Positions 22,612 to 28,911 are shown, numbered from the stretch's first letter. The stretch is DNA of 64,000 nt from Candidatus Poribacteria bacterium (GCA_016215705.1 JACRIR010000130.1:1456-65455), one strand, 5' to 3'. Notes: a model not told the origin generated them from the sequence alone. Translations and numbers: made by a program.

Positions 22612-22646
22612 TCCTCCACCCCCTTTGCCAAAGGGGGGATTTCCCC
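22612..22646. repeat. REP-2 palindromic repeat copy (CCCCCTTTGC-AAAGGGGG family)
   Basis: CCTCCACCCCCTTTGCCAAAGGGGGGATTTCCCC in the bioB-bioF intergenic space. Confidence 0.7.
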
Positions 22647-22695
22647 AATGAACGACGCAATGCTGATTTGTCCAAATGAACACTAGAAGACAATT

Positions 22696-23898
22696 ATGAC
22701 AATTCGACAACGAGATTCCACGTCGCAGGGACGATGCGCGTTCGAGGTTGAGCTCGCGGAGATCGAGGCCCAAGGGCTTCTCCGCAAGACAAAGCTCATC
22801 GACGGCGCCATCGGGCCGCGGGTTTCACTTGATGGCCGCGAGACCGTGCTGTTGTGCACGAACGACTACCTTGGACTTGCAAACCATCCATCCGTAAAAC
22901 AAGCTGCCAGAGAAGCCCTTGAAAAATATGGGGCTGGGGCGGGCGCGTCACGGCTGGTGTCGGGCACTCTGCCACCGCATGCCAAACTCGAGGCCGCGCT
23001 CGCACGGTTCAAGGGAACAGAGGCCGCGCTCGTATTCGGCTCGGGTTATCTGGCTAATTTGGGGATCGTCTCCGCCCTGGAGACTCAAGGAGACGTTATC
23101 TACAGCGATGAACTCAATCATGCGAGCATCGTTGACGCCTGCCGGCTCAGCCGGGCGACGACTAAGGTTTTCCGGCATGCGGACACCGATGCGCTCGAGG
23201 CAATGCTTGCCAACGACCTCGCGTATGGCCGAAGGCTGATTGCGACCGACGGGATATTCAGCATGGACGGGGACATTGCGCCACTCCCCAAGCTTGCGGC
23301 GCTTGCCGCCGAGTACGACTGCTGCTTGATGGTGGATGACGCGCACGCCACCGGCGTCATCGGTCCGGGAGGAAAGGGAACCGCAGCCCATTTCGGACTC
23401 GGAGGCAGCATCGACATTCAGATGGGAACTCTCAGCAAGGCCCTTGGCAGTTACGGCGCTTTCGTTGCAGGCTCGCGCGACCTCGTGGATTTCCTGGTGA
23501 ATCGCGCGCGCAGCTTCATCTTCACTACCGCGCTCCCCCCCGCCTCAGCGGCGGCCGCCTTCGAAGCGCTCAACATCATCGAGCGCGAACCGGAGAGAAG
23601 CGAGAGACTATGGCAAAACGCCTCTCTCCTCAAGGATGGGCTCGTATCCGGTGGGTTCGATGCCGGCGCTTCCGAGACTTTCATTATTCCAGTGATAATC
23701 GGCGACGCGAGGCAATGCGTCCGAATGGCGGAAGCTCTCCTCGAAGAGGGCGTCTTCGCTCAGGCCATAAGACCGCCCTCAGTGCCGGAAGGAACTTCCA
23801 GGCTGAGAGTTGTTCCCACGTCGGAACATCTGCCGAGTGATATCGGATTTGCGATTGAAGCGTTCAAACGCGCAGGGAAACGATGCGGCATCGTCTAG
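22696..23898 (+). CDS. bioF: 8-amino-7-oxononanoate synthase
   Basis: PLP-dependent acyl-CoA transferase family: GSGYLANLG, DDAHATGVIG, GTLSKALGSYGAFVAG. Confidence 0.88.
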   Translation: MTIRQRDSTSQGRCAFEVELAEIEAQGLLRKTKLIDGAIGPRVSLDGRETVLLCTNDYLGLANHPSVKQAAREALEKYGAGAGASRLVSGTLPPHAKLEAALARFKGTEAALVFGSGYLANLGIVSALETQGDVIYSDELNHASIVDACRLSRATTKVFRHADTDALEAMLANDLAYGRRLIATDGIFSMDGDIAPLPKLAALAAEYDCCLMVDDAHATGVIGPGGKGTAAHFGLGGSIDIQMGTLSKALGSYGAFVAGSRDLVDFLVNRARSFIFTTALPPASAAAAFEALNIIEREPERSERLWQNASLLKDGLVSGGFDAGASETFIIPVIIGDARQCVRMAEALLEEGVFAQAIRPPSVPEGTSRLRVVPTSEHLPSDIGFAIEAFKRAGKRCGIV

Positions 23899-23908
23899 AC
23901 GAAAACTA

Positions 23909-23959
23909 GATCCCCACTTCCCCCCTTTTCAAGAAAAGAGGGGAGCAAGGGGGAATTTG
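23909..23959. repeat. REP-2 palindromic repeat copy
   Basis: CCCCACTTCCCCCCTTTTCAAGAAAAGAGGGGAGCAAGGGGG. Confidence 0.65.
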
Positions 23960-23968
23960 TAAGATGCG

Positions 23969-24757
23969 ATGGCAATAGCGATTTTCATAACGGGCACGGA
24001 TACCGAGATCGGCAAGACGGTCGTTGCCGCCGGCCTTGCGCTCGCCTTCCGCAAGGCCGGCCTTGACGTCGGCGTCATGAAACCGGTCGCTACCGGCTGC
24101 CTTCCTCGTCACGAATCAAGCGCATCGGGGGAATCGGAAAATAGGGACAGCCCCGTTGCGAAGGGTCTGTCCCTATTTTCCGAAGACGTGGAATACCTTA
24201 TGGACGCGTGCGACTGTAAAGACGAGCGCAAACTCGTTTGCCCATACATGCTTCGCGAGCCACTCGCGCCGGAAGTCGCTGCCGAACTCGAAGGCGTCAG
24301 GATCGACGTCCGCAAGATGGTCCGCGCGTACAAAGAGCTTTGTCGAAAACACGACGCGCTGATTGTCGAGGGCGCGGGTGGTCTGCTGGTTCCTATCAAG
24401 AAGAACTATTTCATGGTGGACCTCATCACGGCGTTTTCGGCCCCTATAATCATCGTCTCGAGACCCGGACTGGGGACAATCAATCACACGCTTCTTACGC
24501 GCGAGCTTGCAGGGGCAAGAGAAATCGGTGTCGCGGGGATAATAATCAACAACTATGTCGAAAGGCCCTCCCTCGCGGAGCGAACCAATCCGGACGTGAT
24601 CCGTCGCTACTCCGGCGAGCAACTATTGGGAATAATGCCTCAACTGGCGGGGGTGTCGGTCGCGCGCAAGAAATATGAGGGACTCCTCGAGGCTACCGAA
24701 GCAAACATTGATGTTGACAGAATCTTGAACTATATGGGAAGAACACGCCGCCGATGA
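23969..24757 (+). CDS. bioD: Dethiobiotin synthetase (with ~30-aa low-complexity insertion encoded by a palindromic element)
   Basis: [24 protein letters not shown] is the BioD P-loop, followed by GAGGLLVP. A perfect 15-bp inverted repeat is embedded in-frame at 24136-24181. Confidence 0.85.
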
Positions 24758-24790
24758 GTTGAAATGGGAACAGAGAGTTTACAGGGCAAA

Positions 24791-24820
24791 CCTCCCCCGC
24801 CCCCTTTGCGAAAAGAGGAG
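24791..24820. repeat. REP-2 palindromic repeat copy
   Basis: CCTCCCCCGCCCCCTTTGCGAAAAGAGGAG. Confidence 0.6.
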
Positions 24821-27669: not shown

Positions 27670-27677
27670 TGACGCGC

Positions 27678-27720
27678 GCATATTCGAGAACACCATGCGG
27701 CATGGTGTCCCCGAATATGC
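27678..27720. repeat. REP-1 palindromic repeat copy
   Basis: GCATATTCGAGAACACCATGCGGCATGGTGTCCCCGAATATGC between pdhA and pdhB. Confidence 0.75.
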
Positions 27721-27764
27721 GCAAATTCCGGTAGTGACGACTATCAAAGGAGCAGCAGACTAAC

Positions 27765-28757
27765 ATGGCGCAAATGCGATACCGTGAGGCTCTGCGAGAC
27801 GCTCATGCCGAGGAAATGCGGCGCGACAATCGGGTCTTTGTAATGGGCGAGGACATCGCGGTCTGGGGTGGTTCATTCAGAGTGACCGAGGGTCTGCTCG
27901 CAGAGTTCGGCGCGGAACGCGTCATCGATACTCCCATCTCGGAAGAAGTTATCGTTGGCGCCGGAATCGGAGCGGCTATGGCCGGTCTGAGGCCCATCGT
28001 CGAGCTCATGACTATCAACTTCTCGTTGCTCGCGATGGACCAAATCATCAACCATGCCGCCAAGCTCTACTACATGTCGGGCGGGCAGTTGCCGATTCCA
28101 ATGGTCATTCGTGCTCCCCAAGGAGCAGGCCAACAACTGGGGGCTCAGCACTCGCAGAATCTTGAAGCCCATTTTGTGCACACGCCCGGTCTGAAAGTCG
28201 TGATACCCTCGACCGCCGCCGACGCCAAGGGTCTCCTGAAAACAAGCGTCCGCGATGACGACCCAATTATCTTTATCGAGCACGAAATTCTCTACGGCAT
28301 GAAGGGCGACGTGCCCGACGACAATGACTTTACAATTCCGCTCGGTGTCGCCGATGTCAAGCGCGAAGGCAGCGATGTAACAATCGTTGCCTACTCGCGA
28401 ATGGTTCACACGGTCCTCGAGGCAGCTTCACAGTTAGAGAAAGAGGACGGCATTAGTGTCGAGCTGGTTGATCCGCGCACGCTTAAGCCGTTCGACATCG
28501 ATACGGTCACGAAATCGGTTGAGAAAACCGGCCGTCTCGTTATCGTCGAGGAAGACTGCCGTACTTGCGGAGTCGGCGCCGAGATTGCCGCCTCGGTGGG
28601 CGAACGGGCGTTCTACAGCCTCGACGCTCCGATTCTGCGTGTCGCCGGCGCGGATGTCCCGATACCGTATTCAAGACATCTCGAGCAGAGCGCAATCCCT
28701 CAGACGCAGGACGTCGTTCACGCAGTCAAGAGAATCTTGGCGGGAAAGGCGCCCTGA
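27765..28757 (+). CDS. pdhB: 2-oxoacid dehydrogenase E1 component beta subunit
   Basis: Transketolase-like pyrimidine-binding and C-terminal domains: VFVMGEDIA, DTPISEEVIVGAGIGAA, PIVELMTINF. Confidence 0.88.
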   Translation: MAQMRYREALRDAHAEEMRRDNRVFVMGEDIAVWGGSFRVTEGLLAEFGAERVIDTPISEEVIVGAGIGAAMAGLRPIVELMTINFSLLAMDQIINHAAKLYYMSGGQLPIPMVIRAPQGAGQQLGAQHSQNLEAHFVHTPGLKVVIPSTAADAKGLLKTSVRDDDPIIFIEHEILYGMKGDVPDDNDFTIPLGVADVKREGSDVTIVAYSRMVHTVLEAASQLEKEDGISVELVDPRTLKPFDIDTVTKSVEKTGRLVIVEEDCRTCGVGAEIAASVGERAFYSLDAPILRVAGADVPIPYSRHLEQSAIPQTQDVVHAVKRILAGKAP

Positions 28758-28768
28758 ATATGCCGGGA

Positions 28769-28804
28769 GAATCCCCCCTGCCCCCCTTTGCAAAGGGGGA
28801 GCAG
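28769..28804. repeat. REP-2 palindromic repeat copy
   Basis: GAATCCCCCCTGCCCCCCTTTGCAAAGGGGGAGCAG. Confidence 0.7.
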
Positions 28805-28872
28805 CCGACTCCCTTTGGTAAAGAAGGGACAGGCGAGATTTGGCTCAATACCGCCTTTCGTAAAGGATCAAC

Positions 28873-28911
28873 TAATCCCCCCTTTGCAAAGGGGGACAGG
28901 GGGGATTTGAA
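28873..28911. repeat. REP-2 palindromic repeat copy
   Basis: CTAATCCCCCCTTTGCAAAGGGGGACAGGGGGGATTTGA. Confidence 0.7.

Follow-up and report, generated by a model that had tools for sequence, protein, structure and literature searches.

REP-2 palindromes in the bio and pdh spacers of a Candidatus Poribacteria genome: inserted three-block repeats and their association with DUF559/YcjD-like endonuclease genes

The short repeats of Escherichia coli called BoxC, PIT elements or TMECO have been known since the 1990s, while their origin, partner gene and function have never been established. They follow the motif CCCTCNCCC-N3-6-GGGNGAGGG-N3-GGGNGAGGG (Holder et al., 2015; PMC4666352), a paper that cites Hoyne et al. 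(2000, 2002) for the description of PIT elements and TMECO. The copies are always intergenic, occur in either orientation and often as inverted pairs, and have stems that are more conserved than their loops. They form a triplex in vitro that was undetected in vivo and have no promoter or terminator activity; their loci are more rearranged between strains than controls, and a tie to mobile elements or to specific neighbouring genes was not found (PMC4666352). A second precedent comes from Geobacter bemidjiensis, whose unnamed multicopy repeats Gbem_R5001-R5006 have the consensus AAGTCCCCCTTTGCGAAGGGGGATTAGGGGGATTTC (Aklujkar et al., 2010; PMC2996986, Table S6) and are merely listed there, with no structure, distribution or partner gene given. 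Here we describe REP-2, a family of palindromes in a stretch of 64,000 nt from a Candidatus Poribacteria bacterium (GCA_016215705.1, JACRIR010000130.1:1456-65455; hereafter the window, with positions counted from its first letter), together with the DUF559 gene that accompanies the family in other genomes.

REP-2 and TMECO share their building plan. In both, a pyrimidine stem is followed by a loop and a purine stem, then by a short linker, for which TTA is frequent in either family, and by a mirror purine stem of equal length. The loops of both are less conserved than the stems, and REP-2 reaches about nine triads, as does TMECO, if its TTT/AAA/ATT ends are counted. Both lie in intergenic regions in either orientation, form inverted pairs and occupy loci that vary between close relatives, the exception for REP-2 being a doublet inside bioA of one relative (locus L129). 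Our analysis further shows that TMECO, like REP-2, has a unit at the 3' end of a DUF559 gene (ycjD). We consider the REP-2 copies of the window to be probably gene-less satellites within a cross-phylum three-block family that is partnered with a DUF559/YcjD-like nuclease.

Unit architecture and clustering in the window

The REP-2 unit is asymmetric and consists of C5-6TTT, a loop of 2-4 nt, AAAG5-6, a linker of 1-5 nt and G5-6ATT(T). We call the order C5-6TTT...G5-6ATT(T) the R-form and its reverse complement the L-form. Orientation varies between units, some of which have both outer arms or are paired as inverted doublets. The final block is a mirror of the purine stem, with G6 opposite G6 and ATT opposite AAA, which explains the conserved GATT/AATC flanks that an earlier note on this DNA had recorded and that are indeed present. 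G/G triads and triads with A or T opposite A are permitted in a purine-motif intrastrand triplex; the three-block unit sequence considered for triplex formation was CCCCCCTTTGCAAAGGGGGGCAGGGGGGATTT. With the defining layout present, REP-2 has a three-block architecture of the PIT/BoxC type, which is predicted to permit an intrastrand triplex. The layout recurs beyond the window: among 250 flanks of copies chosen on the core 18-mer alone, 114 have a second G-run at most 8 nt downstream, followed by ATTT in 98 and by ATT in 104 of these 114, with G-runs of equal length in 78%.

The window contains the following units and associated segments:
Element A, 22607-22642, bioB/bioF spacer: single unit, AAACTTCCTCC (eroded outer C-arm), A, CCCCC, TTTGCCAAA, GGGGGG, ATTT
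Element B, 23909-23958, bioF/bioD spacer: nested hairpin with both outer arms, GATCCCC, ACTT, CCCCCC, TTTTCAAGAAAAGA, GGGG, AGCAA, GGGGGAATTT
Unit C, 24788-24818, left arm of the bioD/bioA doublet (outer C-run first): L-form, eroded
C..D interior, 24819-24879: 61 nt with two small hairpins
Unit D, 24880-24911, right arm of the bioD/bioA doublet: R-form, CCCCCC, TCTTGCAAA, GGGGG, CA, GGGGGGG, ATT
Unit E, 28770-28799, left arm of the pdhB/osmC doublet: L-form, AATCCCCCC, TG, CCCCCC, TTTGCAAA, GGGGG
Unit F, 28810-28842, within E..G: degenerate, putative unit, TCCC, TTTGGTAAAGAA, GGGA, CAGGCGAGATTT
Mini-hairpin CCTTTCGTAAAGG, 28854-28866, within E..G: partial covariance-model match, E = 2.9
Unit G, 28874-28908, right arm of the pdhB/osmC doublet: R-form, AAT, CCCCCC, TTTGCAAA, GGGGG, ACA, GGGGGG, ATTT

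The earlier note had claimed at least seven palindromes, at 22612, 23909, 24791, 24878, 28769, 28807 and 28873, confined to 6 kb among genes that it named bio, pdh and osmC. A REP-2 palindrome is present at every one of these positions and nowhere else in the window, and the gene names are backed by Pfam. The seven sites nevertheless amount to only four independent elements, because two inverted doublets, one with C and D as its arms and the other with E and G, had been counted by their parts. Two of the elements are single hairpins (bioB/bioF and bioF/bioD) and two are inverted doublets (bioD/bioA and pdhB/osmC) of 125 and 139 nt, respectively.

The clustering of REP-2 inside the window is real. 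An exact match to the 18-mer CCCCCTTTGCAAAGGGGG quoted in the earlier note stands at 28782 and another at 28878, while the sites at 22619 and 24882 deviate from it by two mismatches each; allowing up to three mismatches gives five matches in the window against 0.04 expected from shuffles. Likewise, GGGGGGATT or its complement is found five times, every time inside a REP-2 element, against 0.61 expected. The copies at 23909, 24791 and 28807 are degenerate, with different loops or eroded runs. A covariance model trained on 87 units, solely from other genomes, was run over the whole window with filters off. It reaches E ≤ 0.035 solely at 22606-22641, 23906-23959, 24877-24914, 28767-28804 and 28873-28910 (best about 1e-16), while copies C (24786-24822; E = 0.18) and F (28805-28843; E = 0.71) are not significant singly; the rest of the 64 kb has no further score below E = 0.4. 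A generic three-block finder (stems of 7-9 nt with at most one mismatch) returns A, B, D, E and G and no other site in the window, and a single match in 64 kb of relatives' loci, itself a REP-2 unit. REP-2 occupies four of 43 spacers, all inside six consecutive ones (permutation P of about 0.003-0.005, a post hoc value based on rough gene calls).

The elements differ in their state of preservation. Element A, assigned to repeat family D12, is an L-form with an eroded outer arm (covariance E = 5e-6 at 22606-22641; RNA hairpin of -13.8 kcal/mol). Element B is degenerate and of aged appearance, and is matched by the three-block finder on both strands (E = 2e-7; RNA fold of -23.2 kcal/mol). Unit C and the reverse complement of D (E = 2e-8) share about 77% identity, and the two units pair in the predicted fold (RNA of 24784-24918; -64.4 kcal/mol, z = -5.4). 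The best scores are those of E (E = 5e-14) and G (E = 1e-16, 51 bits): of 31 positions, 30 agree between E and G read as its reverse complement, and the two units pair across 74 nt in an RNA fold of 28765-28914 with -82.7 kcal/mol (z = -7.7). Unit F is a weak assignment to REP-2, judged from its sequence, and the mini-hairpin may, equally weakly, be an eroded core. BLAST of the C..D interior against the sequences compared gave no further copies. The metagenome scan of the E..G interior, unit F included, gave no matches either, so there is no evidence for the whole E..G doublet as a multi-copy unit. Five of the seven window units are stop-free in all six frames.

All REP-2 copies of the window are intergenic and lie between co-directional genes. 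The genes of the region, named after Pfam, are:
MFS transporter, 20150-21328, + strand
bioB, 21569-22576, + strand
bioF, 22696-23898, + strand
bioD, 23969-24757, + strand
bioA, 24965-26374, + strand
E1 alpha, 26707-27669, + strand
E1 beta (pdhB), 27765-28757, + strand
OsmC, 28924-29355, + strand
E2, 29573-31150, + strand

The G- and C-runs had been proposed in the earlier note to form G-quadruplex (G4) or i-motif structures. It is scarcely credible that they matter in this way, or that the units are terminators or operators of bio and pdh. Such a reading can invoke the runs of 5-7 G or C and the short ATTT that follows the hairpin, but a pattern scan found no REP-2 unit with four G or C runs: the patterns (G3+N1-7)x4 and (C3+N1-7)x4 are absent from all of them, loops of up to 12 nt included. 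A complementary C-run moreover lies a few bases from each G-run, so that the hairpin competes. The one or two G4 patterns of the window (9764-9800, with long loops, and 11182-11204) are outside REP-2, and no C-run pattern occurs in it. The non-B structure that matters here would be the hairpin or a triplex within one strand. None of the REP-2 units is flagged by scans for terminators and promoters; they are placed within operons and lack conservation among orthologues, and the published E. coli tests found PIT elements to be without promoter or terminator activity. An intrinsic terminator was rejected as a candidate, the tail being ATTT with no U-run, the scan negative and the units placed between co-directional genes. 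The window units are neither terminators nor operators. A search of Rfam in E-value mode over 20-31.5 kb returned no matching family, only chance hairpin matches to microRNA models.

Insertion into spacers and spread of the family

Comparison with relatives, whose loci (here numbered with the prefix L) were gathered via BioD and OsmC homologues, bears out the suggestion of the earlier note that the copies could be insertions. The bioD/bioA spacer, 207 nt long with C..D in the window, is a mere TAATG overlap in L129 (BioD 87% identical) and L132 (64%). Element A is missing from the bioB/bioF spacer in L131, and the two genes overlap in L132. At the pdhB/osmC junction, the place of E..G is taken by a GTAG-tagged REP/REPIN palindrome in L134 and L135 (OsmC 92%) and by a REP-1-type repeat in L136 (OsmC 91%); in the outgroup L137 (OsmC 80%) the spacer is only 28 nt long and ends in the window's ribosome-binding stretch TTGAAAGGAAACCG. 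The covariance model found zero REP-2 in 48.6 kb of relatives' pdh loci, and the recipient junctions are compact (0 to 43 nt) in the more distant relatives. Because these junctions are empty, compact or filled by other repeat families, the copies are insertions and not conserved regulators. From the sequences compared, these spacers appear to be hot spots that receive different palindromic families in each lineage.

The insertions are of different ages. Element B is old, because both L129 and L131 have REP-2 remnants at their bioF/bioD junction, where these are nested together with a REPIN of the GTAG type and a further hairpin. The E..G doublet is young, as E and G differ at one of 31 positions. 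A recent local proliferation, as proposed in the earlier note, can therefore be upheld in part: E..G is young and local clusters recur in other genomes, while element B is old and the bio and pdh copies were joined by rearrangement. The latter follows from a synteny breakpoint in the bioA/pdhA spacer (26375-26706), which falls within the REP-2 cluster. In the relatives, HisKA-Patatin-GT2-Lactamase_B genes stand upstream of pdhA and Metallophos/GYF-RDD genes downstream of bioA, none of which occurs in the window; synteny further downstream is preserved (E2, DsrE, HMGL, FliQ, FlhA). The recurrent clusters elsewhere fit either local proliferation or hot spots.

The same comparison bears on a regulatory role. 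A host-selected element acting at the RNA level, in which intercistronic hairpins protect mRNA or tune bio and pdh expression, is improbable. Such a role has a parallel in the REP sequences of E. coli, which reportedly protect upstream mRNA and tune operon expression. It would fit the position of all four elements between co-directional genes, the very stable predicted hairpins (-14 to -83 kcal/mol), the 3' ends of B and G, 10 and 15 nt before the next start codons (that of osmC in the case of G), and the like placement of five of the six copies in G. bemidjiensis. Orthologous spacers in close relatives, however, are empty or contain unrelated repeats, some copies lie in frame inside coding sequence, the neighbouring genes are functionally unrelated, and Rfam gives no match. 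The bio/pdh-specific role that the earlier note had considered is contradicted by the lack of conservation at orthologous junctions and by the 168 Pfam families found as neighbours elsewhere. In our preferred reading, the inserted units would be mostly passengers that form stable hairpins in the bio and pdh transcripts. Such RNA hairpins could, by their modelled stability, slow 3' exonucleases or uncouple translation.

Residence inside genes is seen in the relative L129, in which a REP-2 doublet lies in frame within bioA and encodes QIPPLQKGETGSPPLEKRGRGDL. The window has other in-frame palindromes in these genes: one in bioD (24130-24186, arms AAATAGGGACAG), where BioD has 19 residues beyond its usual homologues of 243 residues, and one in bioA (25564-25611, arms CAGGAACAGAC[CT]CCAT), at the site occupied by the REP-2 doublet of L129. 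The bioA/pdhA spacer has a promoter-like site at 26551-26579. Just 5' of bioF (22645-22695) there is a direct repeat, AATGAAC-N23-AAATGAAC(AC), which is partly common to L131 (1130-1197; AAATGACGCAAATGGGGACAAATGTCACGAATA). Being conserved, unlike REP-2, this repeat could be a real regulatory or ribosome-binding feature, as far as sequence comparison goes.

REP-2 is a family that reaches far beyond this genome. Its exact core is found in at least 114 stretches of species-representative genomes, against roughly 10-20 expected by rough arithmetic, and the flanks of these cores have the left outer arm only in 40 cases, the right only in 38, both in 18 and neither in 24. Full units occur under at least nine phylum labels, as given by the submitters: Desulfobacterota/Geobacter, Chloroflexota, Beta- and Gammaproteobacteria, Bacteroidia, Ignavibacteriae, Elusimicrobia, Binatia and Gracilibacteria are among the labels, and the isolates Acinetobacter marinus ANC 3699 and Lysobacter sp. 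CA196 also have units. Copies under the labels Elusimicrobia, Betaproteobacteria, Syntrophobacteraceae, Bacteroidia and others match unit E over 30 nt without a single difference (100% identity). A close relative of the window's genome (GCA_964450145.1) has copies on at least five contigs, locally clustered too. Doublets of unit, spacer and unit without a gene are the commonest doublet type in the genome loci, and of 140 units, 32 sit 150 nt or more inside open frames of at least 600 nt. Thirteen viral or proviral contigs of IMG/VR (L116-L128) have the exact REP-2 core, eight of them with full units. Viral contigs are a possible vehicle for spread between lineages.

The G. bemidjiensis repeats R5001-R5006 belong to the same family, with the same blocks in the same order and near-identical sequence. 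Unit G differs from AAGTCCCCCTTTGCGAAGGGGGATTAGGGGGATTTC in one loop base and the linker. The Geobacter copies represent a C5 subtype with a linker of 4-5 nt, while the window has a C6 subtype with a CA-type linker. Three of the six copies lie within about 12 genes of one another. REP-2 is not among the repeats listed in the supplements to the genome papers of G. metallireducens and P. carbinolicus, and a literature search on sequence strings returned no relevant paper. BLAST with the 43-46 nt consensus returned nothing from 5,426 E. coli genomes or from plasmids and phages, a result that is uninformative since low-complexity masking is probable. For annotation, REP-2 explains many spurious or extended open reading frames (ORFs) with peptides such as PPLQRGG and SPLCKGG, and flags the spacers concerned as insertion hot spots instead of regulatory regions.

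Other palindromes and repeats share these regions with REP-2. REP-1 palindromes (TTATTCGGGGACACCATGCGGCATGGTGTCCCCGAATAA) have 12 copies in the window (1359, 5479, 14238, 27681, 36757, 42203, 43444, 47743, 49952, 54347, 56021 and 59040) and are also present in GCA_964450145.1 and in relatives' pdhA/pdhB and pdhB/osmC spacers. Repeats of the CCGCAAAGGCGCAAAG type (29474, 31174, 54966, 61649) and of the TTCTGAGCGAAGCGAAGAATCTC type (10585, 21440, 31280, 59710, 62500) both recur in the osmC/E2 spacer of relatives. Palindromes with a GTAG tag, of REP/REPIN type (TGTAGGGGCGCAATTCATTGCGCCC), are found at 29852-29887, 55997-56097, 61805-61887 and 62585-62631, and similar ones (CTGTAGGTGCGAATTTATTCGCAC) occupy bioF/bioD and pdhB/osmC spacers of relatives. 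Because of these GTAG palindromes, a RAYT gene may exist in these genomes.

That REP-2 itself is an ordinary REP or REPIN, moved by a RAYT (an IS200/IS605-like tyrosine transposase), is very improbable. REP-2 does consist of short intergenic palindromes with inverted doublets and local clusters, and the GTAG-type family shares its window. The REP-2 units, however, have no GTAG or CGTC tag and end in AAAT and ATTT, no recurrent transposase accompanies the copies in the repeat-bearing loci compared, and the gene that is flanked by units is DUF559. REPIN-RAYT systems are also described as mostly vertically inherited, while REP-2 has copies that are identical over 30 nt under many phylum labels. 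The REP-RAYT reading thus fails together with the terminator, operator and G-quadruplex readings, because the features that define each of them are lacking.

Downstream of E2, the window contains a diversity-generating retroelement of 5.7 kb (31151-36862) with a lower G+C content of 0.49-0.51, which is absent between E2 and DsrE in L134 and L136. It comprises a target gene (31561-34830; Metallophos and NACHT domains and a C-terminus of the FGE-sulfatase/C-type-lectin type), bAvd (34861-35232) and a reverse transcriptase (35229-36323). The variable repeat (34706-34822) and the template repeat (36284-36400) have 18 of their 19 differences at template adenines.

The DUF559/YcjD-like gene as a probable partner of the repeats

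Searching for a partner gene from the repeat side returned housekeeping families only. No linked transposase recurs among 809 ORFs of 126 repeat-bearing loci (all-against-all clustering) or among 141 flanking proteins (Pfam). One genome, however, has a cassette of about 520 nt in three copies at 98% identity, found through the DNA repeats common to its loci. Its order is an R-form unit, a small gene and an L-form unit, bounded by an additional 19-nt inverted repeat, and the gene encodes about 120 residues with the Pfam domain DUF559. The protein matches PDB entry 3HRL at E = 2e-20 and is 41% identical to E. coli YcjD, which is described in the literature as a predicted Vsr-like PD-(D/E)XK nuclease. 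By homology, the cassette protein is likewise a predicted Vsr-like PD-(D/E)XK endonuclease.

The arrangement recurs in loci that were collected without reference to the repeats. Homologues were sought in metagenome contigs with peptide patterns inside the protein only, giving more than 600 stretches, and the best 80 of 345 relatives (60-97% identity) were kept. On these 80 loci the covariance model gives 336 matches. In 60 of 75 loci, strict patterns place the end of the R-form 12-18 nt ahead of codon 1, and in 58 of 70 the L-form begins 60-74 nt past residue 98, a position that coincides with the stop codon; the AAAT of the downstream unit often provides the TAA of the gene. Units are present on both sides of the gene in 46 of 65 loci. 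Mean pairwise nucleotide identity among 46 distinct cassettes is 0.84 for the upstream and 0.79 for the downstream unit, values inflated by choosing cassettes for recognisable units, compared with 0.66 for the gene, 0.28 for the leader and 0.22-0.24 for the outer flanks. The cassette protein belongs to a family of at least 1,489 clusters, mostly on contigs shorter than 2 kb, and one protein is found on up to 16 contigs, as expected of a multi-copy element. Many cassettes (a subset of L138-L217, e.g., L139, L142, L145, L151, L156, L169 and L179) are enclosed by an additional outer inverted repeat, GGGCATAAGCGCTAACTTA ... TAAGTTAGCGCTTATGCCC, in front of which a CCCTCTCCC-like tract is frequently found. 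This outer repeat suggests a further nested layer or a larger element. Our search found no paper that connects DUF559 or YcjD with repeats, and we regard the pairing of REP-2 with DUF559, found in no paper, as a new lead.

Similar associations are found in distant organisms. In E. coli MG1655, the stop codon of ycjD lies in the loop of a degenerate TMECO-like unit, which is followed by a partial duplicate of the 3' end of the gene, and TMECO no. 9 (Table 1 of Holder et al.) lies about 170 nt downstream of ycjD; by rough arithmetic, the chance that one of 23 TMECO copies falls within 200 nt of a given gene is about 0.002. A plasmid of Deinococcus psychrotolerans (L220; NZ_CP034185.1, 298046-299148) has a DUF559 gene within 57-nt inverted three-block repeats, between paaD and paaZ, which looks like a clean insertion of a whole cassette into a spacer of the phenylacetate operon. 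Azospirillum, Photobacterium and Neisseria gonorrhoeae have two or three units within about 300 nt of a DUF559 gene. Pseudanabaena and Picosynechococcus PCC 7002 have C5-6/G5-6 units with ATTTA or CTA linkers on both sides of such a gene; these two sets were spotted by eye, as their stems are shorter than the minimum of the three-block finder.

Satellites of this kind would be comparable to REPINs that depend on a RAYT gene, or to miniature inverted-repeat transposable elements (MITEs) that depend on an insertion sequence. With respect to MITEs, the doublets have 30-nt inverted arms and gene-carrying cassettes have the same arms; no target-site duplication is visible, and the protein is no known transposase. 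According to the mechanism that we propose, a DUF559 nuclease encoded elsewhere in the genome would make or move the window units in trans. It would recognise the hairpin or the three-block structure and nick the unit, and repair or recombination would then copy the unit nearby. Nicking and recopying of this kind would account for the clustering of copies, for the doublets and for spacer turnover.

The main rival, which we consider unlikely, holds that the repeats spread otherwise, by replication slippage, template switching at hairpins or an unlinked transposase, and that DUF559 is a selfish, homing-like gene that targets REP-2, resides within the site it recognises and so parasitises the repeats. 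Homing endonuclease genes typically split their target, and DUF559 keeps a fixed distance to the unit on either side of it. A homing endonuclease of a group I intron belongs to the Vsr/DUF559 group, the gene-less doublets that are so common in the genome loci could be the empty target, and most repeat copies have no nuclease gene nearby. On the other hand, the units are better conserved than the gene and have co-diversified into lineage-specific stems beside DUF559 in distant phyla, which fits mutual dependence equally well or better; no independent mobilising enzyme was found near the copies.

Several observations weigh against the satellite reading itself. The 64-kb window has no DUF559 gene, so that the partner nuclease in this organism is assumed, and only three of the 126 repeat-bearing loci have one, all three from one genome. 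The metagenomic cassettes have their hairpins outermost, while the window doublets, like the Deinococcus cassette, have the outer arms outermost. No target-site duplications were seen in the flanks of the copies, the selection of the 46 cassettes favors conserved units, and the association could equally reflect a nuclease gene homing into existing repeats. To these are added the E. coli experiments cited at the outset, with neither promoter or terminator activity nor a triplex in vivo (PMC4666352).

For the window alone the message is modest: the palindromes are passengers of the bio and pdh operons that belong to a known architectural class, and not regulators. The main value lies in the partnership with DUF559/YcjD at the level of the family, which would also cover BoxC/TMECO and is testable in E. 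coli. If it holds true, DUF559, a large family of "unknown function," acquires a role, and the instability of BoxC/TMECO loci a candidate mechanism.

Comparison with described palindromic systems

We tentatively extend the interpretation to a single ancient selfish class, of which BoxC/PIT/TMECO, REP-2 and the cyanobacterial C5-6/G5-6 variants would all be satellites; its core would be a YcjD-like DUF559 endonuclease that recognises the structure of the unit and promotes its copying. We hold this wider proposal with clearly less confidence than the satellite reading of the window copies. Such a class would be a parallel to REP-RAYT built on a PD-(D/E)XK nuclease, crossing phyla and colonising spacers as well as coding loops. 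REP-2 and TMECO differ in several respects within the shared building plan. The blocks of REP-2 are homopolymeric (C6T3/A3G6/G6ATT) compared with CCCTCNCCC/GGGNGAGGG in TMECO, and the TMECO consensus has no match in the window. Unlike TMECO, REP-2 often has both outer arms and then forms a fully nested palindrome. REP-2 occurs under many phylum labels and also in frame inside genes, whereas TMECO is reported in proteobacteria and is always intergenic.

REP/REPIN-RAYT systems (Bertels and Rainey, 2011, PMC3116915; Di Nocera et al., 2013, PMC3733652) resemble REP-2 in their spacer palindromes and inverted doublets, and in a nuclease gene flanked by inverted repeats. The two REP superfamilies are marked by a GTAG or a CGTC tag (PMC3733652). 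REP-2 has neither tag, is associated with a PD-(D/E)XK DUF559 protein instead of an HUH tyrosine transposase, and is cross-phylum.

BIMEs are reportedly mosaics of palindromic repeats, and REP-2 and its neighbors likewise form mosaics of palindromic families in spacers, an example being the bioF/bioD junction of relatives, where REP-2 is nested with a GTAG REPIN and a further hairpin. The component motifs differ, and the binding of IHF or gyrase is not attributed to REP-2. Rickettsia palindromic elements are said to reside in frame inside genes. Another repeat family of Geobacter has been reported inside genes (PMC2996986). Both share with REP-2 the in-frame residence in coding sequence without breaking it; they are unrelated to it in sequence, REP-2 is much shorter, and all REP-2 copies of the window are intergenic.

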